The notes under the pieces: generated by a model | The model's input: only the letters and a program-made list of their open reading frames with translations | Told to the model about the DNA's origin: nothing | Database searches by the model: none | Assembly: GCA_025336685.1 (NCBI GenBank) | Contig: GCA_025336685.1_4717.1 | DNA from: Escherichia coli | Lineage (GTDB): Bacteria > Pseudomonadota > Gammaproteobacteria > Enterobacterales > Enterobacteriaceae | Length of the DNA: 64,000 nt | Direction: 5' to 3' (one strand) | Shown here: piece by piece, positions 52,094 to 63,723 of the stretch | Position numbering within the stretch: position 1 is the stretch's first letter | How the letters are laid out: the number at the start of each line of letters is the position of its first letter | Made by a program: the position numbers and the translations under genes

Positions 52094-54574
52094 TTAAGCG
52101 TCCTCGATAGGCAAAGGTTTAACAATCAAACGATTGAGCGGATTCGATAGACGCATACTGACAGGCTTATACGCAACATGATTCGTCTCACTTAGAACCG
52201 CTGACCTGAAACGACCATTCACCTGTTTGTAGATTGGATCTATCCAAAGACCTTGAAGGTCGCGCTTACGGAAACGTTGTTCGAACGGTTTGATCGGGTT
52301 TATGGTCAGCCCATGCAGCGACTCCGACAGTAAACGCTCACGAAGGTCGCGTGGTGCCCGACCCGGGAACGGTGCAAGCCACAAACCATCGAGTGGGTTT
52401 TTACGGAAACGTAACGAGATGGGATCACTGATGACTTGTGCCCAATATTGCGTACTGAATCGAACCGTTTGGGTATTCTCGTAACCGCTACAGTCACACC
52501 AGGTTGGTTTCGGAGGTGCTTCCAAACTTTCAACCACCGATTCGCGCCAGTTCGTCATCGGGTTGTTATCATGTACGAATTTGATAACTTCCGTAGCCTG
52601 GTTATCCGTATCATGAACGTTTGCCTGTGCCCAGTCTTCCCACAGTTCTTCACTACCACTTACTAAACTCGAACCAAGACGAACGGCGATTTTGTTTAGT
52701 GGTTTGATTGGATCACTGTTGATTGTCTGGATAAAATGGATGGTGTAACTACTCAATGTCTTAAGCAGCTGCAGCATTCCGTATTGAATATCCTTAAGAC
52801 TGGTGACATCTTCCAAATCTTGACCGGTGGCCTTTGTGAAGATATCGAGAGCCAGAATTCCCGCCTCTTCTTGACTGATTGCGTCAAGCTCCCAATCCAT
52901 CGCTAAGAACCATTCCTTGTAAAGCTGCCCAATACCGAAGTCGACACCAACATCCATGTAAAAGTTTTCAACGATGGCTTCAGCCATACCTCGAGCTTGA
53001 TAATGCTCTTGGAGCTGGTACATGAACTGATGACGACGCCAGCCCTGGTAGATCTCGGTAACGACGTTGAGAAACTCTTCAGTACTGACGACCGGACGCA
53101 ATGTTACTTGCTTATCCAAACACCACCAGATCAGTTTATCGGGAATGATAGCGGGATCGGTAATGCTACGGAGATGGTCGAATGTCGGTAGCGTTAACAC
53201 CCTGACATGGTTAGCATGGATCTTAGGTACTTCAATCAGCGTCATGCCCATCGAATAGTTCAGCAAATACAAGAACAGCTTGTATGCATCTTTCATCGAC
53301 ATCGTCATGGTATCACCCGTCACCGGGTTGGTTGTCGTTAACCGTGACTGGTACATGCCTATAGCGCTAAGATGAATCCATTCGTTCAGTAGGAAATCAT
53401 ACTTAGGATACAATTCACTGTCTGTAAGGTCTTCCGCTTCACTTTCCAACACCTTGGTCGTTAAGGTGTTGTTGTCATGCATCGACATTTTCTCTATCGT
53501 GCGGTTAAGCTCGGTATAATACTCCGCTTCGTTATCCCGCGCTAAAGGGAACTGTTGCTGCATCACGGTGGTGACCTTACGCCTTACCGTGCCGTTGCCG
53601 ACGATCTCTTGAAGGTTAAGTGGTTTACGCTCCATGTAAACGGTAGGTTTTAACGTCTGAGGTATCTCGGAAGCGTCTTGTTTGATCGAGAACGCACCGA
53701 TTGGAATTCCACGTTCGGTTAATACCTTTTGAATGAGCTTATCGTAGTTTTCCGTTCTGCCCATGTTTCTTTCAACGTAAGCAATGTTACGATAAAACCA
53801 GAGCATTTGAGATTCGGTCATGTATCGCTCGAATCGATCAAGACCTTGATGGCTTGCCAGATAACTCCAGATATGGAAGCTATGGGCATAATGGGTATGA
53901 CAGTTTTCCCAACGAATACCTTTTATCATCTCAGGTATTTGTGTGAATAGAATGGCGTATAACGCAGGCCAATGAAGCATATCGACGCTTTCATACGCCG
54001 GGTGTTCCCAACGTCTAAAGTAATCATCGATTTCTTGCTGTAAGCGTGGAATAAGATTGGCCTCGCGCGATTCAACCTCTCGTGTATCGTACCAGAGAAT
54101 CTCATGATTGCGTGCCGCAATTGCTTTCTCGATATCGATGGGGTTAAGGATACCCAAGATCAACATACGTTGTTCTGGATACCGCGCAATTAAACGATTG
54201 AAATAATCTCCGCCGTACGCGTATTCCCTTGCTGTCATGCGATGTCGTAACATGTTTTCCTTGGTGAACTCGATCTCTTCGAGCGTATCCAGGGAATTTA
54301 CGGTCATCATTGTCTGACAAGGATGATACTCGCCAGCGAGATTCATGTAGTATAACCACGTGCGTGGGTCGTCCCCGACGGCCATCTGGTAGACTTCGGA
54401 AACCTTGAGGTTTAACCGTTCTGCCGTGATGTCGCTTTTAATAATCAGGGTGTCCGTTAGACGCTGCACGCTTTCCGAATAAAGCTGATAGTCAGTGTTG
54501 GACACGATCGGTCCTCCAAGGAGCCAGTGTAAATGAACGATATAAATAAAGGGCGCGTCGCCCTCGAACGTCAA
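52094..54574 (-). CDS. Large hypothetical protein (up to 826 aa) with C-terminal tandem peptide repeats; 5' end uncertain
   Basis: The track start at 54574 is a TTG overlapping the divergent gene; first in-frame ATG is near 54385. C-terminus has 2-3 repeats of (D/N)PI...RFRK..L.GLW. Confidence 0.5.
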   Translation of the reverse strand: MTFEGDAPFIYIVHLHWLLGGPIVSNTDYQLYSESVQRLTDTLIIKSDITAERLNLKVSEVYQMAVGDDPRTWLYYMNLAGEYHPCQTMMTVNSLDTLEEIEFTKENMLRHRMTAREYAYGGDYFNRLIARYPEQRMLILGILNPIDIEKAIAARNHEILWYDTREVESREANLIPRLQQEIDDYFRRWEHPAYESVDMLHWPALYAILFTQIPEMIKGIRWENCHTHYAHSFHIWSYLASHQGLDRFERYMTESQMLWFYRNIAYVERNMGRTENYDKLIQKVLTERGIPIGAFSIKQDASEIPQTLKPTVYMERKPLNLQEIVGNGTVRRKVTTVMQQQFPLARDNEAEYYTELNRTIEKMSMHDNNTLTTKVLESEAEDLTDSELYPKYDFLLNEWIHLSAIGMYQSRLTTTNPVTGDTMTMSMKDAYKLFLYLLNYSMGMTLIEVPKIHANHVRVLTLPTFDHLRSITDPAIIPDKLIWWCLDKQVTLRPVVSTEEFLNVVTEIYQGWRRHQFMYQLQEHYQARGMAEAIVENFYMDVGVDFGIGQLYKEWFLAMDWELDAISQEEAGILALDIFTKATGQDLEDVTSLKDIQYGMLQLLKTLSSYTIHFIQTINSDPIKPLNKIAVRLGSSLVSGSEELWEDWAQANVHDTDNQATEVIKFVHDNNPMTNWRESVVESLEAPPKPTWCDCSGYENTQTVRFSTQYWAQVISDPISLRFRKNPLDGLWLAPFPGRAPRDLRERLLSESLHGLTINPIKPFEQRFRKRDLQGLWIDPIYKQVNGRFRSAVLSETNHVAYKPVSMRLSNPLNRLIVKPLPIEDA

Positions 54575-57439
54575 ATGAGCAATAATGACGTTGCGAAGGC
54601 ACTCATGAACAAATTTGTCGCTCCTGCTCCGCAGTCACGTCTTTATAATACACGTGATGCGGAAGGAGCGAGCGGTCGTTTCGGGTTAGTTGTTCCCGAC
54701 CAAATGACGATGAACACGGTTACGCGTGCGACCGCGACAAACATCGAGGATAATAAAAACATCCTCGAGTTGTTCCCTGAACTTAAACGCGTGATGCAGA
54801 TCTACGTTGCCGCGTTGACGAACCCTAACGATCTTAAGACGGTCGAGATGTTTATCGATAGCGAAGATTTCCCGGGTAGGGTCGCAGAAATCGTTCAGCC
54901 GATGATCGATACCATCGACACGCATTTTAAGAATATCTATAAAATAAAGACGCTTATCCCTCGTATCATCGAAGACGTCTTCTTTATCAAGGGCAGTTAT
55001 AACTTCGTTGTTCTGCCAGAAAGCACGCTCGACCGCGCTATTAATGGTAACGGTCAACTGAAACTTGAAGAATACGGGTTTAGAGACAACCATTTCGCAA
55101 GTTGGGGGCTTTTAGGTAACGACAGTCGCAAACGTCACGAAAATCAATTACCTTCGACGGTCTCGATGGAAGATTATTTCTCGGGCGTTAATGAAACCAT
55201 ACCGTACGATCCCGTTGTCCGTATAGACAGCATTAAGTTTACCAATACCCTGCTTCGTGATAAGGACGGTAAATTCATTGAAGCGAAGATCGATATTCCG
55301 GATATGGTTACGGTTGTCGATAACCCAGATATTCTCCGCATGCCTATTTTGCATCAACGTCGAGCAGCGACAGCGGTGCAACGCGCGTTACGCACGAACA
55401 CGTTAGGAGGTAGTGGTTTGGTAACACTGTCAGGTGATCCAACCCTAACCGCTAACCGACGTGAGCTGTCGCAAGAACAGGTTAACGAGATTTGGAATAA
55501 ACTCAACATCCAACGTCACACCAAGGTATCTCCCGTTTACGCGCTGGCAACCCCAGATACGCTTGATCGTCAAAGCGTTGGCCATCCTGGTGTGATGCAC
55601 GTACCACCTGAGGCATTAGAACCCGTACATGCACCAGGTGATCCGGAGAACCATATCGGGTATTTAGTTCAGTTGGATGAGTTTGGTTATCCGGTGCGTT
55701 TGGTTGAGGATGCTGCGTATTACAAGCAGTTGGAAGGTCGGTTGTCGAAGATCACCGCGGATATCGCGGGTACGTCAAGCAACGGCATGGCGAGCGAGAT
55801 GATCGGTGCGGCCAAGAACATGATCCAAGGTACGTCGTGTAATCAAGTAGACATGTCGGCCTTCGTGTCATCGTACGAATCATTGATGCAACGCTACATC
55901 GTTGAACGAATCGTCAACGGTTATCTTGGTAGTGCGGTGGAGATCGGTGCGACATCATCGTTTTACCTATCGATGCTTGCTCGCAGTCTCGCCCACAAGC
56001 AGACCCGTGTTTTGTTTATTCCTCGAGAGATGGTGACATACATCGCTTATGAATACAACAAATACGGTATTGGTCGTTCACTGCTTGAAAGTACGAAGAT
56101 GATCTCGTCGCAACGAGCCATGCTCATGGTTCAAGAACTGATGGCGAAAATCAAAAGTTCGTTGAACTATACGACGCTAAGTGTAATGCTTGAAGATACC
56201 GACAGAAACCCGGTCGATACCGTCGAACAGGCACTACATAGTTTCGCTCGCGTCTACCAGTCTGGTTTCCCGTTGGGTGAAACTAACCCAATGGACATCA
56301 TCAACGCATACGAACGAAGCTCGATTCGATTGAAGGTTGAGGGGAATAACCCACGCTTCCCGAAATTGAATACGGACGTCAGCGTTGAGCAGCGTAACTA
56401 TCAGTCTCCTGATAATGAATTGATGGATCGTTACCGTCGTGACCACTTCATGGGTTTGGGAGTTTCTCCAGAGATTATCGATACTTCCTACCAATCTGAA
56501 TTCGCGGCTTCTGTGATTACCGCTAACGCGATGCAAGAGAAGCAGTTCACGGTTTGTCGTGAGGTTATCACGAACGGATTAACTGATCACATCAAGAAGT
56601 ACACGGCTTACAGTCCTGTATTGTTGACGTCGCTACGAAACACGGTTCGTGCGAACATGTCTAAGCTCTCCCAAGCACAATTGAAACAGCTTTTTGGTAG
56701 CGATTTCGAAAACGGCGTTATTCGTAACGTTAATGCTTATCAGGAGATCGACGACCAGTCAGCAACAATGGACCTGGATTATTCTAAACCGGAAGTTCAG
56801 GAAGTTATTGCCGATGCTTATGTATCCATGTTCTTAAACAGTCTGCAGGTGCGTTTACCGAACAGCAATGCTCGCCGCCTTGAAGATCAGGTACGTGAAT
56901 ATAATCAGTACAAGGAAGCGATTACAGCGCAACTTGATGATTATTTAACGCCTGATTACGTCATGGGTCTGGGTGGGGTTGATGAAACAACACTGCAGAT
57001 GATCCGTGCATGCATTATTGGTACCGCGATGCGTACATGGGCAAAAGAGAACAACTTCAATCAGGAGCTGGCTGATCTCTTCAGTCTCGACGATAAGAAG
57101 AATGCCGTGCAAGATTGGAAACGTGCATCCATGGAACATATTGAAATCATGGGTAAATGCATGGGTGATTTTGCATTGTATATTCAGAATCTGACGAAGA
57201 AGATTGAAGAGAAGATGGGAGATCAAGCACAGGACGGCAGCGTTTCATCTGATGGTTCTTGGTCGTCTGATTCAAGTAGTGATACCGGTTCTTCTGATGA
57301 CTTTGGCGGTGATGATTTCGGGGATACCGATTTCGATACCGAAACGATGGAGGAAACCTCAACAGAGGAGACAACCACGTCTGAGGATACGACTACCGAT
57401 ACAACGTCAGAAGACGAGACTTCAGGTGATATTGTCTAA
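54533..57439 (+). CDS. Large hypothetical protein (968 aa) with highly acidic Asp/Glu/Thr/Ser-rich C-terminal tail
   Basis: Strong SD AAGGAG 9 nt upstream of ATG 54533; C-terminal about 70 aa is acidic low-complexity. Confidence 0.55.
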   Translation: MNDINKGRVALERQMSNNDVAKALMNKFVAPAPQSRLYNTRDAEGASGRFGLVVPDQMTMNTVTRATATNIEDNKNILELFPELKRVMQIYVAALTNPNDLKTVEMFIDSEDFPGRVAEIVQPMIDTIDTHFKNIYKIKTLIPRIIEDVFFIKGSYNFVVLPESTLDRAINGNGQLKLEEYGFRDNHFASWGLLGNDSRKRHENQLPSTVSMEDYFSGVNETIPYDPVVRIDSIKFTNTLLRDKDGKFIEAKIDIPDMVTVVDNPDILRMPILHQRRAATAVQRALRTNTLGGSGLVTLSGDPTLTANRRELSQEQVNEIWNKLNIQRHTKVSPVYALATPDTLDRQSVGHPGVMHVPPEALEPVHAPGDPENHIGYLVQLDEFGYPVRLVEDAAYYKQLEGRLSKITADIAGTSSNGMASEMIGAAKNMIQGTSCNQVDMSAFVSSYESLMQRYIVERIVNGYLGSAVEIGATSSFYLSMLARSLAHKQTRVLFIPREMVTYIAYEYNKYGIGRSLLESTKMISSQRAMLMVQELMAKIKSSLNYTTLSVMLEDTDRNPVDTVEQALHSFARVYQSGFPLGETNPMDIINAYERSSIRLKVEGNNPRFPKLNTDVSVEQRNYQSPDNELMDRYRRDHFMGLGVSPEIIDTSYQSEFAASVITANAMQEKQFTVCREVITNGLTDHIKKYTAYSPVLLTSLRNTVRANMSKLSQAQLKQLFGSDFENGVIRNVNAYQEIDDQSATMDLDYSKPEVQEVIADAYVSMFLNSLQVRLPNSNARRLEDQVREYNQYKEAITAQLDDYLTPDYVMGLGGVDETTLQMIRACIIGTAMRTWAKENNFNQELADLFSLDDKKNAVQDWKRASMEHIEIMGKCMGDFALYIQNLTKKIEEKMGDQAQDGSVSSDGSWSSDSSSDTGSSDDFGGDDFGDTDFDTETMEETSTEETTTSEDTTTDTTSEDETSGDIV

Positions 57440-57859: not shown

Positions 57860-60418
57860 TTACTGCTCTTCACGTTCCAACAGATACTCGGAAGCGGTAA
57901 TACCGTTTACCGTACGTACCGCTTTCAGACGAGTATCGTCACTCAGAATCACGGTAACAGACTGCAGACCTTTTACTTTGGTCTCGAAGGTCTTGAATAC
58001 CTGATCCAGCATACGAGCAATGCTTGGGTTGGTTGCAGCCGATGCGTGAGTGTAACCGTTCTGGTTCAGCTTCAGAATCTTGGCGTTGGTTGGTACACGA
58101 AGAACAACATGCGGACGCATTGCGAACACACTGTGGTTAAACCAGTAAGCATCGTTACTATCTTCGTCAGTGACGATGTCTGGATTAACACGCATGTCTT
58201 CGGTAGCCGCACCCGCCAAACGACGTTCGATTTCGTCAGCATCCAGAGAGCCGTCCTTCTCCAGTTCTGCACGATACTCACTCATGGCAACCAGATGACG
58301 TTCACGATTCGCTGCAGATTTTTCGTGAGCGGCTTTCAGGTAGTCATGCATGTTGTACAGTTCTGCCATGGAAAGACGAATGTTCCACTGACCTTCGCCG
58401 TCACGATTGCAGTAGAGACACTTCAGCATGTTGACCCAGGTGTAGTAGCAATTGGAGAACTCATCTTCAATGAACTTCTGATCCATTTTAAGATCGTGAA
58501 TCAGCCAACCGGACAGTTCTCCGATATCATCAACGAAGCTAGAAATGGTGGTTTCAGAGAAGTTCTTCGGTACGATACGTTTGATCAGCTTGTTAACGTC
58601 TTTGGTCATGCTATCATTCAGGAAATGCCAGATACGCAGAGGAATGACATCACGATACTGTTGCATGATCTGACGATAAGCTTTGATATCGTCGCTACGA
58701 CCTTTATCAATAGACAACGCGTCCAGGAATTCATGGATAGCATCCAGCTCTTTGTCGGTATAGGTTCCCAGATAGGAATTGACCGTGGCAAGGAATGCTA
58801 ATGCGTCGTTTTGGTTGACGTCGGTGTTGGTCTGCTGAATGATCGCTACTGCAGCTTTGGTTTCAGCATCCTCAACGCTTGACGCTGCGATTGCGTCGGT
58901 AACAGTAAACAGTTTCATTTCGCGCTGTTCGCCGACAACGATCGGTTCGCGTTGAACCGGTTTGTTAAGACTAACGCGAACAACTTCTGCTTGCGCGATA
59001 CGATCCAGTTTTACCATTTCCTGCTCCGCCATACGACGAGCGGTCGGATCTGATTCAAGTTCGATGTATTCCACTTCTTCCTCCGTGAGGGATGTAATGT
59101 CAACAATGGTTTCATGAAGAATTCCGTTTTCGTCGATACGTGCTCGACGAGCGAAGTGTCTGAAGTCATACAACGTTGGCCAGCGACAATTAGGCGCATA
59201 GTCTTTGGCCTTCAGACGCATCTGCATAAATTCTTCATGTTGAACAACACGACCGTAACGCTTAGCATCTTCGGTCGCATCAATTGGATTAACGGTCTTT
59301 GTTACCGTAGCAGAACGAGCCGTACGAATGGGTTCCGGTTTAGTCTGCACTGGTTCAGGTTGAACGGATTTCTGTTGTCCAGCCTTAACATGCCATTCGG
59401 GTTCTTCGTACCGTTCAGCAAATTGCTCGGCTGCTGCAAAGATATCATTGATACCACCAATATCTCCTTCTGGATTCGTCGAATATATCCGTGGTTGCGG
59501 TGCCTCGTAACGCGGCGCTGAGGTAGCAGATGCGTCGTTAACGACAGGATCGTCATCGCCAACATCATACAAACGGTTGAACGCACAATCCTTCGAATCG
59601 ATGTACGATGGAGTTTGTGGTTGGATAACCGTCGGTCGAGGCTGTGCGCCGTATCCCGGCATTGTTGGAGCCATACCACGCATAACTGCTGGGTTAGGTT
59701 GGTATTGTGGTTGTGGGTAGGTTCCGCCATACGTGGGATATGCAGGCTGTTGCGGTTGACCGTACCCACCACCAACCATCGCATTTGCTTGCGGTCCACG
59801 GTAAGTCATCCCCAGTTGCATCACCTGTTGCTTCAGACCGCGGGACTTCTGCGCTATTTGTGCTAGACTCCCACTTTTATTTAGCTGCGTGTACTTATTC
59901 GCGGCTTCCGGGTTAATGCGCGATAATTCAATCGCACGATAATACTCCGGGTATTGATTGGCTTCAAAGAGCCACGTTACAAGGTGATACAGCGCAACTG
60001 TGCTCACAGCAGCAGAGACGATCTGGTCGTTGGACGCATTCTGCGGCATCGGGTTGATGTAAGAGAATACGTTCCAGCAACAGTCTTCAACAAGCGATTC
60101 CATCATCATGTCGTTATTGGTGTAACGTGAGACGAACTCGGTTTGTATTTTATCCTGTTGGGCGAAGTCTTTCAGGACATTGAAGACAGCTTGACGGATT
60201 TTGACGATCGTCGCTTCTTGGGTGATGAAGTTATAGTTCTGCTGATATGATGGTTGCTGGTACTGTGGTGGTTGATAGGTGTTATTCGGGTATGCGCTGT
60301 ACTGCGGTTGCTGGTACTGTTGTTGGCGAACCTGTTCAGCCGCATAATTAATCGTACTCGCATAAGGGTTTTCGTTGTAGCCCATTTGCTGATACATGTT
60401 GTTACTGCCATTATACAT
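57860..60418 (-). CDS. Large hypothetical protein (852 aa) with Gln/Tyr/Pro-rich low-complexity N-terminal regions
   Basis: N-terminal 65 aa (YQQPQYSAYPNNTYQPPQYQQPSYQQNY) and a second QPxY-rich segment around aa 215-270. Confidence 0.55.
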   Translation of the reverse strand: MYNGSNNMYQQMGYNENPYASTINYAAEQVRQQQYQQPQYSAYPNNTYQPPQYQQPSYQQNYNFITQEATIVKIRQAVFNVLKDFAQQDKIQTEFVSRYTNNDMMMESLVEDCCWNVFSYINPMPQNASNDQIVSAAVSTVALYHLVTWLFEANQYPEYYRAIELSRINPEAANKYTQLNKSGSLAQIAQKSRGLKQQVMQLGMTYRGPQANAMVGGGYGQPQQPAYPTYGGTYPQPQYQPNPAVMRGMAPTMPGYGAQPRPTVIQPQTPSYIDSKDCAFNRLYDVGDDDPVVNDASATSAPRYEAPQPRIYSTNPEGDIGGINDIFAAAEQFAERYEEPEWHVKAGQQKSVQPEPVQTKPEPIRTARSATVTKTVNPIDATEDAKRYGRVVQHEEFMQMRLKAKDYAPNCRWPTLYDFRHFARRARIDENGILHETIVDITSLTEEEVEYIELESDPTARRMAEQEMVKLDRIAQAEVVRVSLNKPVQREPIVVGEQREMKLFTVTDAIAASSVEDAETKAAVAIIQQTNTDVNQNDALAFLATVNSYLGTYTDKELDAIHEFLDALSIDKGRSDDIKAYRQIMQQYRDVIPLRIWHFLNDSMTKDVNKLIKRIVPKNFSETTISSFVDDIGELSGWLIHDLKMDQKFIEDEFSNCYYTWVNMLKCLYCNRDGEGQWNIRLSMAELYNMHDYLKAAHEKSAANRERHLVAMSEYRAELEKDGSLDADEIERRLAGAATEDMRVNPDIVTDEDSNDAYWFNHSVFAMRPHVVLRVPTNAKILKLNQNGYTHASAATNPSIARMLDQVFKTFETKVKGLQSVTVILSDDTRLKAVRTVNGITASEYLLEREEQ

Positions 60419-60453
60419 TTCTTACGATCCTTTTTATTTTATTCGGTTATGTG

Positions 60454-62250
60454 TCAATCGATTATGTCACGATCGTTAATTTCTACAATTTCTTCATCGA
60501 ATCGACCGACGTCTTTCTTCAAGCCTGCATTTGTTGCTGCAACGTCATTTGCGATTTGTGGGGTAACGATTAACCGACCACGCTCATCGATAGGTGCGTA
60601 CATACTGAACTTCTGACGTCCGGTTGGTTCGGAGTGTGGAAGATTCAGATAGCTTGCACAGAACGGGATGGAACCACTAACCAAACGACTCTCGTCAGCC
60701 AATGCAGCACCGCCTGCGTTTTGGCTCTGGAGAACAACATGCGTGCTCACTTTGAACAGCATGCAATCACCAGGTGACTGAATCGATGTTGCCACTTTCT
60801 CACGTTTATCACGATTGCTCTGGATATTGAGAATCGCTTCCGTTGCAACTTGATTTCGCAACGCCTTCTGTACATCGCGATTGGTCATCTCTTTACGGTT
60901 GTTCTGTCGTTTACCACGTTCCGTGGTTTTAAGATGGAACCCCAGTTTAAAGATGCTTTTACGCACATCCTCCATGACATATTCCAACACCATCAATTCC
61001 TTACCGAACATCGTCGTGGTATCAACACGACTCATTTCGATAGTAACATTGTCAATCAGATACGCCATAAATTCGTAGAAGTCGTCGCAAGGAATATTTT
61101 CCTGTTTGAACTTCTTCTGTTGAATTTCGTCAACGTAAAGATCGAGACTGTCGATGTGGTGGTTTACATCACGCAACAAACGCGCATCCGCATTGTTGTT
61201 ATTAAAGATAATCAAACCGAGTAATGTACGCCAATGGTCTGGCGCATTCGCGAACTCTTCAACCGGATAGTCTTCCGGGAAACGATCGTAATAACGGTCG
61301 ATGAGATATAAGAACGCACCGACAAGGCCAAGAACAATACGTTCCGTACCTCCACGTCTTACAGCGATTTGAATATCAGGATGTTTATAACGTACAGCGT
61401 TAGCGCTACGGCTTTTACCGCTTTTGCTGATACTAAAGCCTTTAGGAATAACCCCCATGGTGCGATAGATTACCCATTGGTCGCGCGGAAAATCACGTTC
61501 AGCAAGGTTCCGTCCGGTTACGGCTTCGACACCTGCAAAACGTCGGAAACATTCACCCACCCCATACTTCGCAAAGAGATAATGACCCAGTGTGGTTACG
61601 CTGGTGTGGTTGATGTTGTCACCGTTCACTTTACTTTGTTTGGTAAGATGATAGATTTGCGACCAGGGTAACGACAGATAATGACGATAATCGATACCCG
61701 TTGGTGTATCATTGCTCAGGAACTGATACGGTGTACGTTTAACCGTGATTTTGTCACGCGGAAGCATGATGAACGCCATGTCTTTCGTGTAACTGATTAC
61801 AGGGTCAGCGAGCACCGCACTGAGAATGAAGTTCGCACCACGTAGACGCATTTTACCACCCTGACCTACTGCGGGCAATAGGAGAGGATGTCGGATAATG
61901 CAGTAGTCCTTTCCCGGCTCACGGCGGTCACCTGATTCCATCGCACCGTACCAGCGGAATTCTAGCATCACCATAAACACGTCGGAAGGTGCAAGGTCGA
62001 AGGTCAGCTTACCGCTATCCTTCCCTTTGGTTTTCTTTCCTCCGCTTAAGTAGTGGAACTGTTCGCGGGCCATACAACGACGTAGGCCATGATACACCAG
62101 ATCCTTAGGTAAACTATCTTTGCTGTTCCGCCAAAGACGATCAACATAGGACTCAACATCTTGCATCTTATCGACGACGATGTTGCGTGCTATCTTCTCG
62201 TTCATCTTCGGTGCAAGCTCAGCGACAGCTTTGCAGAATCTAGGATCCAT
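60454..62250 (-). CDS. Hypothetical protein (598 aa)
   Basis: Long ORF; no motif confidently recognised. Confidence 0.5.
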   Translation of the reverse strand: MDPRFCKAVAELAPKMNEKIARNIVVDKMQDVESYVDRLWRNSKDSLPKDLVYHGLRRCMAREQFHYLSGGKKTKGKDSGKLTFDLAPSDVFMVMLEFRWYGAMESGDRREPGKDYCIIRHPLLLPAVGQGGKMRLRGANFILSAVLADPVISYTKDMAFIMLPRDKITVKRTPYQFLSNDTPTGIDYRHYLSLPWSQIYHLTKQSKVNGDNINHTSVTTLGHYLFAKYGVGECFRRFAGVEAVTGRNLAERDFPRDQWVIYRTMGVIPKGFSISKSGKSRSANAVRYKHPDIQIAVRRGGTERIVLGLVGAFLYLIDRYYDRFPEDYPVEEFANAPDHWRTLLGLIIFNNNNADARLLRDVNHHIDSLDLYVDEIQQKKFKQENIPCDDFYEFMAYLIDNVTIEMSRVDTTTMFGKELMVLEYVMEDVRKSIFKLGFHLKTTERGKRQNNRKEMTNRDVQKALRNQVATEAILNIQSNRDKREKVATSIQSPGDCMLFKVSTHVVLQSQNAGGAALADESRLVSGSIPFCASYLNLPHSEPTGRQKFSMYAPIDERGRLIVTPQIANDVAATNAGLKKDVGRFDEEIVEINDRDIID

Positions 62251-62289: not shown

Positions 62290-63723
62290 TTACTTTTTCG
62301 ATGACGCCTTCTCAAGAATCTTGAAAAAGGTCATACCTATACCGACAACAGCCGCGGTTATACTCGCAGCGGCTTTCCAAACATCGACGTTACGTTGACG
62401 TCGTGCTTCTTCCGCTTCACGTTGTCTTTTTGCCTCTTCATCACGTCGACGTATCTCAGCAGCAAACTCGTCATGCTTACGTTTGGCTTCTTCGTCTCGA
62501 CGACGAAGTTCAGCGACGAATTCTTCATGTTTGCGTTTAGCCTCATCATCACGACGTTTTAAATCAGCTTGATAATCTTCGTGTATTTGTCTACGTAGAT
62601 CATCTTGACGTTTCATTTCGGCTTGGTGTTGTTCCATCCTACGTTTTTGTTCGTCTTTAAGCTGATCGAGTTCGGCTTTATGTTGTTCGTCGCGCAGCTT
62701 TGCGTCGGCGCGATGCGCTTCATGCATCTGTGCGATAACTGCCTTGTGTTCATCCGCCATACGTCGCATTTCAGCCATCACCCCTTTAAGGGTTTCTTCT
62801 GACGACTTACGTTCGTAGCTGCGTTGGTCGAAATCATTTTTGTAGGCTTCTTTTTGGATGGGATCGCGCCAATGCAATGCCGATTCACGCGTCGGAAAAA
62901 CATTGTACTTCCACATCTCTTTTTCCAAATCTTCGACCGGTACGAAGATGGAGTCATTATTCCCGAAGGTAACCAACATACCTGGCGCGCCTGCTCCATT
63001 CGTTGGTTTTATTTCGAACGCTTTCCCCAGCACGTTAACCCATAGGCTATACGGATTATGAAAGTCGGGTGGCGTCCAGTGGATAGTGAGTTGCGTTCCG
63101 AGAATCCGGAAACCCTCTGTCTTTCCTGTTAAACTACGCGCACATGTTGCGATGTAGGGGTGATCAATCCCTTTCGTAACATGGTCTGCGCTTTTGTATT
63201 CTCCTTTAACTTTTACGATTGCCACGTTGATTTGCGCGACATAAATAGGTTGATTAAAGTTCAACGTGTTGAGGTCAATTTGACATATCTCGTCCAGCGT
63301 ATCGTACCAGTCTTGCTGGTCTAATAGACGCGGTATTTTCTCTGTGTTAACGATGCGACGGATATGCGGTTTCCTTATCGCGTAACCTGTACCATTTTTA
63401 ACACGGAGTATATCCCGACGTCTACCCGCGTAGACGAAGTTTCTGAATGCACCATTCGCATTAGATACGTCATGGCTGTCAACTATTACAGGACTACGAA
63501 ATTTTGAACGTCGTACGATCCTGAATGTATTACTGTCCTCAACTCTACCAGGAATGTACTGGAACATATTGTCGGAGGTGATAACCAACACGGTATGGCC
63601 GGATTCATTAATACATGCCCACCCTAATTCCAGGTCATACAACGGTTCAGCATAACCGTCAATGCGATATGCGTACCATCCCCACGGTTCGAACGCGGTA
63701 TCACATATTGGCATGGAGGGCAT
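62290..63723 (-). CDS. Hypothetical protein with charged tandem repeats and C-terminal transmembrane anchor
   Basis: Three 19-aa RRRDEEAKRKH(D/E)EF(A/V)AE(I/L) repeats, then hydrophobic AAASITAAVVGIGMTFFKIL at the C-terminus. Confidence 0.5.
   Translation of the reverse strand: MPSMPICDTAFEPWGWYAYRIDGYAEPLYDLELGWACINESGHTVLVITSDNMFQYIPGRVEDSNTFRIVRRSKFRSPVIVDSHDVSNANGAFRNFVYAGRRRDILRVKNGTGYAIRKPHIRRIVNTEKIPRLLDQQDWYDTLDEICQIDLNTLNFNQPIYVAQINVAIVKVKGEYKSADHVTKGIDHPYIATCARSLTGKTEGFRILGTQLTIHWTPPDFHNPYSLWVNVLGKAFEIKPTNGAGAPGMLVTFGNNDSIFVPVEDLEKEMWKYNVFPTRESALHWRDPIQKEAYKNDFDQRSYERKSSEETLKGVMAEMRRMADEHKAVIAQMHEAHRADAKLRDEQHKAELDQLKDEQKRRMEQHQAEMKRQDDLRRQIHEDYQADLKRRDDEAKRKHEEFVAELRRRDEEAKRKHDEFAAEIRRRDEEAKRQREAEEARRQRNVDVWKAAASITAAVVGIGMTFFKILEKASSKK
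62385..62555 (-). repeat. Three imperfect 57-bp tandem repeats encoding the charged 19-aa repeat
   Basis: Units around 62387-62439, 62440-62495 and 62496-62549 share TCATCACGTCGACG...TTCTTCATG...GCGTTT words. Confidence 0.5.

Follow-up and report, generated by a model that had tools for sequence, protein, structure and literature searches.

The closest described counterpart of the protein analysed here is JADA (phiKZ gp124 and Pa36 gp316; PDB ID: 9RP3), which was published in 2026 (PMC12931631). Work on Pa36 and phiKZ has shown that JADA is essential and, at 10 min, one of the most abundant proteins (PMC12931631, PMC12571901), that it forms foci at the EPI (early-infection) vesicles, and that the plasmid-expressed protein is recruited to vesicles upon infection (PMC12931631). 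When PHIKZ124 is knocked down, moreover, phage transcription is strongly disturbed (PMC12571901), and the Pa36 and phiKZ proteins trigger Avs5 immunity through the CTD (PMC12931631). JADA thus matters both as a protein essential to nucleus-forming jumbo phages and as a trigger sensed by Avs5, and its own function is listed as unknown (PMC12931631; review PMC13282480). Architecturally, it is made up of an NTD, a "long disordered" linker that is invisible in the cryo-EM map, and a dimeric CTD; when purified, the full-length protein is a soluble dimer by SEC, mass photometry, and cryo-EM, with no droplets or aggregates reported (PMC12931631). The linker itself is described in that Mol Cell paper as merely 'disordered or flexible' (PMC12931631). 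Beyond this, a pull-down screen is cited, at second hand, for binding of phiKZ gp124 to host DnaX/FtsZ (PMC11849849).

Identification of a JADA ortholog in a Goslar-like phage

The window, by which we mean the whole 64-kb stretch of DNA that was analysed, is assigned by its sequence to a Goslar-like nucleus-forming jumbo phage. Its 852-codon reading frame corresponds to Goslar_00038 (gp38), with 93% nucleotide and 95% amino-acid identity, and as the gene region is this close to Goslar, an established chimallivirus in the literature, the encoding phage is of the chimallin-encoding type. That this frame is a real gene follows from its 95% identity to a protein that has been seen by peptides: 26 of those from Goslar gp38 were found in CsCl-purified virions, at about 25 copies per virion (range 17-39; Table S4, bioRxiv 10.64898/2026.04.21.720040). 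The gene lies co-oriented and directly behind that of nvRNAP beta subunit 1 (gp39), which is the order of the JADA locus. Homologs of gp39 were found in 274 phage records by tblastn, the one in RAY being annotated as 'nvRNAP beta subunit 1', and the same nvRNAP-then-JADA arrangement also occurs in RAY, Eowyn, phiKZ, and contig L005. In fact, an ORF of 600-940 residues stands immediately behind the nvRNAP beta-subunit gene in 77 of 80 chimallivirus loci from IMG/VR. No terminator-like site was detected on the minus strand of the spacer between gp39 and gp38, and a scan for sigma-70 promoters and terminators gave no signal above chance. Gp40 has no pairwise similarity to phiKZ gp122.

A tblastn search of gp38 against phage records matched Goslar alone, and homology was therefore reached through synteny and profiles. 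An hhalign comparison with 70 positional orthologs gave a probability of 99.8% (E 6e-29, 669 columns), with residues 24-851 of the query placed on residues 9-721 of phiKZ gp124. Likewise, an HMM built from 70 non-Goslar C-termini matched gp38 collinearly with 77 bits (E 1e-22), while no shuffle exceeded 9 bits. The link to the solved structure runs through phiKZ gp124, which matches 9rp3_A ('Gp316/JADA') with 1666 bits, and through profile A5 of the family CTD (phiKZ gp124 row included), which matches 9rp3_A with E 4.5e-76; for the Goslar-only profile, 9rp3_A is also the top PDB match, alone not significant (E 1.2). Furthermore, phmmer comparison of the C-termini joins all 74 unique positional orthologs into one component. 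Taken at the level of sequence and locus, the protein is almost certainly a JADA ortholog, and Goslar gp38 would accordingly join a family already described.

Searches of Pfam and PHROGs found no family for gp38; a sub-threshold match to Cas9_C_2 was dismissed. Word-indexed protein searches returned almost only Goslar-like proteins, probably because words from the low-complexity segments crowd the list of candidates, although a CTD-only query free of low complexity also gave just two proteins. An exhaustive HMMER scan added one further relative (P0005), which is 34% identical.

Domain architecture

Gp38 has the order NTD, long linker, and large CTD, with each part aligning to its phiKZ counterpart in hhalign (Table 1). 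The inter-domain linker of about 180 residues comprises a low-complexity segment, here LC2, and an acidic stretch; a second low-complexity segment, LC1, forms the N-terminal tail. LC2 aligns with the phiKZ gp124 linker, and by these alignments LC2 is assigned as the start of the JADA inter-domain linker and LC1 as a lineage-specific tail. Within the acidic stretch, a short helix (residues 324-334; 59417-59449) is predicted in both AF2 runs and is followed by EEPEW.

Table 1. Coordinates of the gp38 gene, the segments of its product, and the upstream neighbour in the window.
Feature	Position	Strand	Basis or remark
JADA-family gene (Goslar gp38 ortholog; phiKZ gp124 / Pa36 gp316)	57860..60418	-	852-aa ORF
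CTD, residues 385-852, homologous to dimeric JADA core	57863..59266	-	HMM, profile, Foldseek
Acidic second linker half, residues 273-384	59267..59602	-	Composition; net charge -10
LC2, low-complexity linker start, residues 206-272	59603..59803	-	P 21%, G 15%, Q 15%, Y 12%
NTD, helical, residues 64-205	59804..60229	-	Helices in both AF2 runs; aligns to phiKZ gp124 NTD (hhalign)
LC1, N-terminal low-complexity tail, residues 1-63	60230..60418	-	Q 24%, Y 19%, N 16%, P 10%
Spacer between nvRNAP subunit gene and gp38 gene	60419..60453	-	Sequence; 35 nt, AGGA ribosome-binding site
nvRNAP beta subunit 1 gene (Goslar gp39 / phiKZ gp123), conserved neighbour defining the JADA locus	60454..62250	-	phrog_2943 'polymerase', E 5.5e-120

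The two AF2 runs, on 5 and on 10 sequences, were of low confidence throughout, with mean pLDDT of 38.7 and 45.4. At this low confidence, AF2 places helices at residues 64-203, leaves 204-380 as coil apart from the short helix, and gives the CTD a mixed alpha/beta content. A Foldseek search with the gp38 model nonetheless had 9rp3_A/B as its only significant matches (E 3.6e-8, probability 1.00), at a TM-score of only 0.34 because of the poor model (mean pLDDT 45). No secondary structure is predicted for LC2, where the pLDDT of 23-32 is the lowest of the protein in a model that is weak as a whole. Since both models are of low confidence throughout, the pLDDT values of LC1 and LC2, low as they are, count as weak evidence of disorder; we consider it very likely, all the same, that these segments are disordered in the Goslar-lineage ortholog.

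Composition of the low-complexity segments

The preliminary description had pointed to Gln/Tyr/Pro-rich segments in a large phage protein, over a span (59600-60418) that amounts to residues 1-273, and had quoted the strings YQQPQYSAYPNNTYQPPQYQQPSYQQNY (residues 35-62, in LC1) and GGGYGQPQQPAYPTYGGTYPQPQYQPNPA (residues 216-244, in LC2). These segments are real. In the densest 30-residue window, 26 of the 30 residues are Q/Y/P/N/G, while 5000 shuffles of the protein gave a mean of 15.4 and a maximum of 21, none reaching 26. The corresponding fraction of 0.87 compares with at most 0.50 in the other plausible genes of the 64-kb window (ORFs of at least 100 aa). An ORF at 59302..59784 (-) with a fraction of 0.53 was discounted, as it lies out of frame inside the gp38 gene. 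No DNA tandem repeat was detected by TRF under LC1 or LC2, the sole TRF row (59807-59835) being within the NTD-coding part.

Both segments have a prion-like composition, in that charged and aliphatic residues are few, and polar, Gly/Pro, and aromatic residues are enriched. Of the 63 residues in LC1, 3 are charged, 2 are aliphatic, and 12 are tyrosine, or one Tyr about every five residues; of the 67 in LC2, 3 are charged, 4 are aliphatic, and 8 are tyrosine. The aromatic residues of LC1 are spaced with a regularity beyond that of shuffles (z -2.45, p 0.0004), with gaps of 5, 3, 5, 5, 5, and 4 in its core; for LC2, there is no significant regularity against shuffles (z -0.88, p 0.19). By the Michelitsch-Weissman criterion, Q/N-rich domains carry at least 30 Q+N per 80-residue window. 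The maximum for the window protein is 28, with 30 reached by the sister variants P0003 and P0004 and the criterion attained by 23 of 77 family members. Hence the resemblance to prion-like domains noted earlier holds for the uncharged, Q/N/P/G-rich, FUS-like composition and for the tyrosines of LC1, and falls short on Q/N content.

Conservation of the segments in the Goslar lineage

Both LC1 and LC2 are under purifying selection, which is a new observation here, with dN/dS values of 0.05-0.13 for LC1 and 0.07-0.17 for LC2 that compare with 0.03-0.15 for the NTD. Moreover, LC2 is 87% identical between the window and L002, as against 77% for the folded NTD. A linker conserved only in length, which had been named as an outcome that would count against a function, is not what these values describe, and the composition of the LC segments is likely itself under selection. 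At greater distance, QPQQP in LC2 is invariant down to the 34% identity of P0005, where the helix at 324-334 and an E-E-P-x-W motif are likewise kept while their surroundings diverge. LC1 behaves differently, in that its length varies within the clade, some relatives having insertions of 10 and 3 residues, and that it is lacking in P0005, for which reason LC1 is not essential to the core function.

Low-complexity linkers across the JADA family

Among 77 members, a low-complexity linker is the rule and nearly always present, which is likewise new here. A stretch with at least 60% Q/P/Y/G/M/N occurs in 55 of 74 members (after the NTD, at about residues 100-300, in 54, and in the N-tail only in one), and roughly 27 additionally have a low-complexity N-tail; these family statistics are drawn from related, non-independent sequences with thresholds of our own choosing. 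Rather than being unusual in phage proteins, as had been proposed, such segments are thus a regular part of a known essential early protein of chimalliviruses (PMC12931631).

The family NTD is 110-142 aa long, and the linker ranges from 89 to 432 residues and cannot be aligned between lineages. Its composition is nevertheless distinct, with medians over the 80 residues after the NTD of 0.23 for Q+N, 0.12 for G, 0.09 for charged, 0.06 for aliphatic, and 0.09 for aromatic residues, against 0.08, 0.05, 0.27, 0.24, and 0.08, respectively, in the CTD. As to flavour, 39 of the 77 linkers are uncharged and PLD-like, 14 are Arg-rich (RGG or R-D/E), and 24 are intermediate, with at least six switches implied by a rough tree. 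In 85% of 62 linkers, the aromatic residues lie at more even intervals than shuffling would give (median z -1.0), as compared with z +0.13 for a control CTD segment. In the N-tail, the motifs LP[VF]..D and PPFVP are conserved in many lineages.

Possible roles of the low-complexity arms

In the explanation that we tentatively prefer overall, LC1 and LC2 would be intrinsically disordered arms of the phage's JADA that act as multivalent modules. Uncharged segments with evenly spaced tyrosines could serve as 'sticker-spacer' modules and, when mounted as arms on a dimeric core, would allow weak, many-point association with themselves, with RNA, or with partners. Such association might then concentrate JADA, and perhaps RNA too, into a focus at the vesicle. 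A condensate-like mechanism of this kind is possible, though we hold it with some doubt. The more far-reaching version, which we regard as unlikely in its entirety, would have JADA as a FUS-like phage scaffold, whose dimeric core and prion-like or RGG arms nucleate an RNA-protein condensate on the vesicle and so organise the hand-over from the injected polymerase to nvRNAP as well as nucleus biogenesis; switches between Tyr/Gln-rich and Arg-rich linkers would then be interchangeable chemistries for one condensate.

The published foci of JADA at the early-infection vesicle are compatible with a condensate. These foci could also come from the NTD or CTD binding a vesicle component, and the solubility of the purified dimer, the Q/N count below 30, the LC2 spacing, and the lack of LC1 in P0005 likewise speak against multivalent arms.

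Alternatively, the segments might be a passive tether, flexible spacers that allow independent movement of the NTD and the CTD dimer or extend their reach at the vesicle, and whose composition need only stay unfolded, soluble, and protease-tolerant, the exact residues being irrelevant. The wide range of linker lengths and the failure to align them between lineages would suit such a tether, as would the Q/P/Y, G/W/Q, and R/D/E flavours that occur at one position and the loss of LC1 from P0005 and many lineages. Generic linkers, however, usually tend towards charged residues and Ser, and not towards Tyr, Trp, or Met, and the JADA linkers retain aromatic residues at a CTD-like frequency with aliphatic and charged ones depleted, the aromatics being spaced more evenly than chance. 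Together with an LC2 that is more conserved in the Goslar clade than the folded NTD, at the low dN/dS given above, and with the invariance of QPQQP, this makes a mere spacer somewhat improbable, even if the authors of the JADA study describe a disordered linker and their recombinant protein is a well-behaved dimer (PMC12931631). A second alternative, which we consider unlikely, is that short linear motifs (G-Y-G-QPQQP and the helix with EEPEW) dock onto a defined partner, the remainder being spacer, with a host factor, nvRNAP, the import machinery, or a vesicle protein as candidates. QPQQP, the helix, and E-E-P-x-W are indeed common to the Goslar-like proteins and P0005 with divergent flanks, and the conserved N-tail motifs of many lineages are of a similar nature; yet the LC motifs are not kept across the JADA family, and the Arg-rich linkers are without them. 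Outside JADA, the Goslar profile is matched best in the PDB by the E. coli SSB disordered linker, 'GGWGQPQQPQGG', though not significantly so (E about 7), and a shared 6-mer is unsurprising between Q/P/G-rich stretches. The binding of host DnaX/FtsZ attributed to phiKZ gp124 would also favour docking, but is a second-hand report (PMC11849849).

Two further readings carry far less weight. That gp38 is packaged and ejected, its LC arms helping tail passage or acting inside the capsid, would fit its detection in purified virions. However, chimallin and PhuZ, which are not virion proteins, appear in the same Table S4 with median estimates of about 126 and 171 copies, so that carry-over of abundant infected-cell proteins is evident and the virion detection of gp38 is ambiguous. 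Gp38 is also neither one of the 28 modelled Goslar proteins nor one of the packaged proteins that were highlighted, the phiKZ gp124 record has no 'structural' note, unlike its neighbours, and plasmid-made JADA is recruited to vesicles after infection (PMC12931631), all of which makes packaging very unlikely. A true self-propagating amyloid prion domain is scarcely credible. The composition does recall the oligopeptide repeats of Sup35 (PQGGYQQYN), and the sister variants have their 30 Q/N per 80 residues. Proline, which disfavours amyloid, nevertheless makes up 10-21% of the segments, the window protein itself misses the Q/N criterion, and heritable conformers would be of no obvious use in a lytic cycle of about one to two hours (imaging at 60-90 min post infection); recombinant JADA, moreover, is soluble (PMC12931631).

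Recasting the "disordered linker" as a selected, family-wide low-complexity module, prion-like or Arg-rich and with a second arm in the E. coli phage lineage, would offer a testable handle on how JADA is concentrated at the early-infection vesicle, for which the genetically tractable Goslar host, E. coli, is convenient for linker swaps. If the multivalent arms hold true, they would show clearly that a bacterial virus uses the sticker-spacer logic of eukaryotic RNP granules; should multivalency fail, the segments would be a mere tether, and the result would be the annotation of Goslar gp38 as JADA.

Comparison with related and analogous proteins

Gp38 shares with phiKZ gp124 and Pa36 gp316 full-length homology, the locus, the NTD-linker-CTD order, and a chimallivirus-specific occurrence. 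Still, it is only about 14-17% identical to these Pseudomonas phage proteins and longer (852 aa versus 721 aa), it has a 63-residue Q/Y/N/P tail in place of the motif-bearing N-tail of phiKZ, and its linker is Tyr/Pro-rich, whereas theirs is Gly/Met/Pro-rich. Essentiality, timing, foci, dimer, and Avs5 triggering are data from Pa36 and phiKZ.

The eukaryotic PLDs of FUS and hnRNPA1, RGG boxes, and Sup35 N combine uncharged Q/N/G/P/S-type spacers and regularly spaced aromatic residues with an attached oligomerising folded domain, and in FUS-family proteins PLD-like and RGG or mixed-charge Arg-rich segments co-occur. JADA likewise has uncharged spacers of this type attached to an oligomerising core, and it is similar to the FUS family in that, across members, a single linker position holds either a PLD-like or an RGG/mixed-charge Arg-rich segment. 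In contrast, the resemblance of gp38 to eukaryotic PLDs and Sup35 N is compositional, without homology, and its segments (63 and 67 residues) are much shorter and far Pro-richer, with 28 and not at least 30 Q/N per 80 residues. Closer to the phage, a 2024 paper in NAR by Enustun et al. on ChmC, a phage-nucleus-associated RNA-binding protein of chimalliviruses, reportedly deals with phase separation and intrinsic disorder. If so, it would be a precedent for condensate-type behaviour in these phages, though ChmC is unrelated to gp38, encoded at another locus, and found at the phage nucleus rather than at the EPI vesicle.

Lastly, the non-significant match to E. coli SSB (1EQQ/4MZ9; E about 7) sets GGGYGQPQQP in gp38 against GGWGQPQQP in SSB. 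Gp38 lacks the acidic C-terminal tip motif of SSB, and nothing else is alike, but in both proteins an uncharged G/Q/P linker joins a folded oligomeric core to a functional end.

Identification of gp38 as a JADA ortholog

Sequence searches were nearly blind to the relatives of gp38, the 852-aa window protein, and synteny was the way into its family. Pfam and PHROGs gave no family match, tblastn with gp38 matched Goslar alone, word-indexed protein searches did not retrieve the JADA family (phiKZ gp124/Pa36 gp316), and HMMER, run exhaustively against 1.84 billion proteins, returned only Goslar-like proteins and P0005, a single relative at 34% identity on a syntenic contig. The gene for a non-virion RNA polymerase (nvRNAP) subunit is followed by one encoding a protein of comparable size in RAY (gp4, 827 aa), Eowyn (gp146, 790 aa), and phiKZ (gp124, 721 aa), and in IMG/VR chimallivirus loci fetched via this subunit, a 600-940-aa ORF was found there in 77 of the best-scoring 80 of 149. 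The 74 unique positional orthologs from these best 80 of 149 loci form one phmmer component over their last 440 residues. Moreover, an HMM from 70 non-Goslar C-termini matched gp38 collinearly with 77 bits (E 1e-22; best of 2000 shuffles, 9 bits), and when the Goslar group was aligned to the remaining orthologs with hhalign, the probability was 99.8% (E 6e-29), with residues 24-851 corresponding to 9-721 of phiKZ gp124 and the N-terminal domain (NTD), linker, and C-terminal domain (CTD) each paired with their counterparts.

Here, phiKZ gp124 matched PDB 9RP3 ('Gp316/JADA') with 1666 bits, and A5, a JADA-family CTD profile with phiKZ gp124 among its rows, matched 9rp3_A (E 4.5e-76). The top PDB match of the Goslar-only profile was also 9rp3_A, which at E 1.2 is not significant alone. 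A Foldseek search with a low-confidence AF2 model of gp38 gave 9rp3_A/B as the sole significant matches (E 3.6e-8; next best, E 0.38), a faint hint that gp38 may have a 9RP3-like CTD fold and dimer. Because of the homology, synteny, and 9RP3 links, gp38 is assigned as the Goslar-lineage JADA ortholog, agreeing with this already named family in homology, locus, architecture, and host family.

JADA, short for Jumbo phage Avs5 Defense Activator, is restricted to chimalliviruses and is a very abundant early protein that accumulates as foci at early-infection (EPI) vesicles; its CTD, the Avs5 trigger, was resolved as a dimer at 2.1 Å, with no density for the NTD and linker (Muralidharan et al., Mol Cell 2026, PMC12931631). 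With PHIKZ124 knocked down by antisense, phage transcription at 30 min is strongly disturbed (PMC12571901). In phiKZ TnSeq, 16/16 genes longer than 2,154 bp were without disruptive insertions (PMC12676376), and orf124, at 2,166 bp, would by its length be among them.

Layout and composition of gp38

The layout of gp38 includes two low-complexity segments, of which LC2 is the start of the JADA disordered linker and LC1 is an additional N-terminal tail. The preliminary description had reported Gln/Tyr/Pro-rich low-complexity stretches in a large phage protein, over a span (59600-60418) equivalent to gp38 residues 1-273 and with two quoted strings at residues 35-62 and 216-244, and this is borne out by composition, shuffles, and a window-wide ORF comparison. 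In fact, the densest 30-residue window holds 26 Q/Y/P/N/G residues, a count found in none of 5000 protein shuffles (mean 15.4, maximum 21), and the corresponding fraction of 0.87 compares with ≤0.50 in every other plausible gene (ORFs ≥100 aa) of the 64-kb window. A second ORF at 0.53 was rejected as a gene, being out-of-frame and nested within the gp38 gene. No DNA tandem repeat was found beneath LC1 or LC2, and hence these segments are not a recent slippage product. The resemblance to prion-like domains claimed at the outset holds for composition and, in LC1, for aromatic patterning, where gaps of 5, 3, 5, 5, 5, and 4 are strikingly regular (p 0.0004); LC2 spacing is not regular relative to shuffles (p 0.19). 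It does not extend to formal Q/N-rich domains, as gp38, with at most 28 Q/N per 80 residues, falls short of the density criterion.

Coordinates of gp38 segments, neighbouring genes, and JADA-ortholog loci (labelled by linker flavour)
Feature	Position	Strand	Residues	Character
gp38	57860..60418	-		852 aa
LC1	60230-60418	-	1-63	Q 24%, Y 19%, N 16%, P 10%; 3 charged, 2 aliphatic
NTD	59804-60229	-	64-205	helical
LC2	59603-59803	-	206-272	P 21%, G 15%, Q 15%, Y 12%; 3 charged
SSB-like string	59756-59770		217-221	in LC2
Acidic stretch	59267-59602	-	273-384	net charge -10
Short helix	59417-59449		324-334	predicted
CTD	57863-59266	-	385-852	ordinary globular composition
gp38 gene in relative L002	L002:10001-12589
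gp36, portal	54533..57439	+		phrog_3004
gp36 acidic tail	57245-57439	+		~65 residues
93-aa ORF				neighbour of gp38 gene
gp39, nvRNAP beta-subunit homolog	60454..62250	-		phrog_2943, E 5.5e-120
gp40	62290-63723	-		477 aa
GW/Q repeats	L040:7745-10045
GW/Q repeats	L047:8015-10084
GGF/GGY-NQ repeats	L013:7626-9704
Arg-rich linker	L085:7633-9852
Arg-rich linker	L069:5275-7479
Arg-rich linker	L070:7688-9778
Arg-rich linker	L053:7688-9769
Arg-rich linker	L045:7687-10515
Arg-rich linker	L049:7696-9843
Arg-rich linker	L089:7681-9792

A low-complexity linker across the JADA family

What is new here is a family-wide low-complexity linker pattern. A stretch of ≥60% Q/P/Y/G/M/N occurs in 55 of the 74 positional orthologs (best 80 of 149 loci), after the NTD at roughly residues 100-300 in 54 and in the N-tail alone in one, and about 27 also have a low-complexity N-tail; judged by sequence, a low-complexity inter-domain segment appears nearly always present. 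With domain limits taken from alignments, the 80-residue stretch following the NTD and, for comparison, the CTD gave medians of 0.23 and 0.08 for Q+N, 0.12 and 0.05 for G, 0.09 and 0.27 for charged, and 0.06 and 0.24 for aliphatic residues, with aromatics retained (0.09 and 0.08); these family statistics come from related sequences in the best 80 of 149 loci, with windows and thresholds of our choosing. Over the 100 residues after the NTD, 85% of 62 linkers place their aromatics at more even intervals than shuffles do (median z -1.0; p ≤0.05 in 16), a bias not seen in a control CTD segment (median z +0.13).

Simple thresholds placed 39 linkers as uncharged and prion-like, 14 as Arg-rich, and 24 as intermediate (best 80 of 149 loci), the Goslar group being intermediate only because its 67-residue LC2 precedes the acidic stretch. 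By inspection of the sequences, Goslar and Eowyn have a Q/P/Y flavour, RAY Q/P/M, and L073 P/A/Q; Klebsiella phages like FBKp24 and KpYy, the Ralstonia phages RSL2 and RSF1, and others have Arg-rich linkers. Arg-rich linkers replacing Q/P/Y come in two forms, one RGG-like (GGFGRSSGGFGRGREEERRGRYEGRGRDERRGRY), the other of R-D/E mixed charge and containing Tyr (RYDRDDRYSDRHEENRR). Linker repeats of Gly/Trp/Gln in two loci (NGWGNQQQNGWNNQSSGWGQQ; GGQGGWQQPQPQQQNMGGQGGWNQQ) and of GGF/GGY-NQ in a third (GGGFNQGGFNQGGGYNQGGG) recall GW- and FG-type repeats. On a rough NJ tree built from the CTD, to be taken only qualitatively at roughly 15% identity, linkers would have changed between Arg-rich and uncharged at least six times, and a pure low-complexity N-tail would have been gained or lost at least seven times. 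Many JADA lineages (e.g., L013, L040, L046, L026, L079, and phiKZ gp124 residues 1-49) share LP[VF]..D and PPFVP N-tail motifs, in place of which Goslar-, RAY-, L029-, and L052/L062-like lineages carry a pure Q/P/M/Y tail.

Conservation of the low-complexity segments

The low-complexity segment of the linker is under purifying selection in the Goslar lineage. Comparing the window gene with Goslar and the more distant IMG/VR relative L002, dN/dS was 0.05-0.13 for LC1, 0.07-0.17 for LC2, 0.03-0.15 for the NTD, and 0.03-0.04 for the CTD, and identity to L002 was 87% in LC2 and 77% in the NTD. The QPQQP at residues 221-225, the predicted helix at 324-334, and its trailing E-E-P-x-W persist down to P0005, where the remaining linker is rewritten yet still Q/P/G-rich. 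Conservation in length only, proposed earlier as grounds for dismissing the region, therefore does not describe LC2. LC1 is more plastic, with 10- and 3-residue insertions in relatives and no counterpart in P0005, and is dispensable over the longer time-scale.

The helix (INDIFAAAEQFAE) and E-E-P-x-W lie in the acidic half of the linker; P0005 has MQDLYNLAERFAVEEEDPMW here, and RAY gp4 a similar EEPMF. Separately, GGGYGQPQQP in LC2 resembles GGWGQPQQP of the E. coli SSB disordered linker (PDB 1eqq/7f2n). Among PDB entries other than JADA, SSB chains match the Goslar-clade profile best, though not significantly (E about 7). At synonymous sites, the 5' third of the gene (LC1, NTD, LC2) diverges from L002 by 1.1-3.4 and the CTD by only ~0.2, which suggests a mosaic or recombinant history within the gene.

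Possible roles of the low-complexity segments

In eukaryotic RNP-granule proteins, multivalent assembly, often with the help of RNA, is driven by two chemistries: uncharged segments with aromatics, and Arg-rich ones with Gly or acidic residues. As the two linker flavours match these and the core is dimeric, we tentatively favour, short of an even chance, LC1 and LC2 as sticker-spacer arms that would help gather JADA, possibly together with RNA or nvRNAP, at the EPI vesicle, with the dimeric core doubling arm valence. Against such arms, recombinant JADA is a soluble dimer, vesicle targeting could come from the NTD or CTD, P0005 lacks LC1, and Q/N density is modest; a passive tether is a somewhat unlikely alternative. 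Rather improbable are specific docking motifs in the low-complexity segments, the helix and E-E-P-x-W at residues 324-334 being a possible one on sequence grounds.

A packaged protein is very improbable. Goslar gp038 was found in CsCl-purified virions (26 peptides, 28% coverage, an estimated 17-39 copies/virion; Table S4, bioRxiv 10.64898/2026.04.21.720040), but chimallin and PhuZ are in the same table (median estimates ~126 and ~171 copies), and so its presence may reflect carry-over. A true prion is hardly credible, the high proline content speaking against amyloid. Our literature search found no mention of JADA-linker composition, prion-like regions in jumbo-phage proteins, or JADA condensates. 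ChmC is the one chimallivirus protein that this search linked to phase separation. The sticker-spacer reading adds a hypothesis for JADA function to the family-level linker regularity.

Locus and neighbouring genes

The region shares 93% DNA and 95% protein identity with Escherichia phage vB_EcoM_Goslar, whose counterpart, Goslar_00038, is annotated 'hypothetical protein'. Directly upstream of gp38 is gp39, the homolog of which in RAY carries the annotation 'nvRNAP beta subunit 1'; the 35 nt between the two genes include an AGGA ribosome-binding site and lack a terminator. Portal gp36, so named in the Goslar cryo-EM preprint, ends in an acidic Ser/Asp/Thr/Glu low-complexity tail (…SSDGSWSSDSSSDTGSSDDFGGDDFGDTDFDTETMEETSTEETTTSEDTTTDTTSEDETSGDIV) beyond the crown domain, modelled as far as residue 923 in the Goslar structure. 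Upstream of the nvRNAP subunit gene, gp40 has three tandem ~19-aa units (RRRDEEAKRKH[DE]EF.AE) within a charged coiled-coil region, and a C-terminal hydrophobic helix (VWKAAASITAAVVGIGMTFFKIL). Pairwise similarity to its positional counterparts, phiKZ gp122 and RAY gp1, is nil, and both likewise end in a hydrophobic helix; PHIKZ122 knock-down perturbs phage transcription, as does that of PHIKZ124 (PMC12571901).
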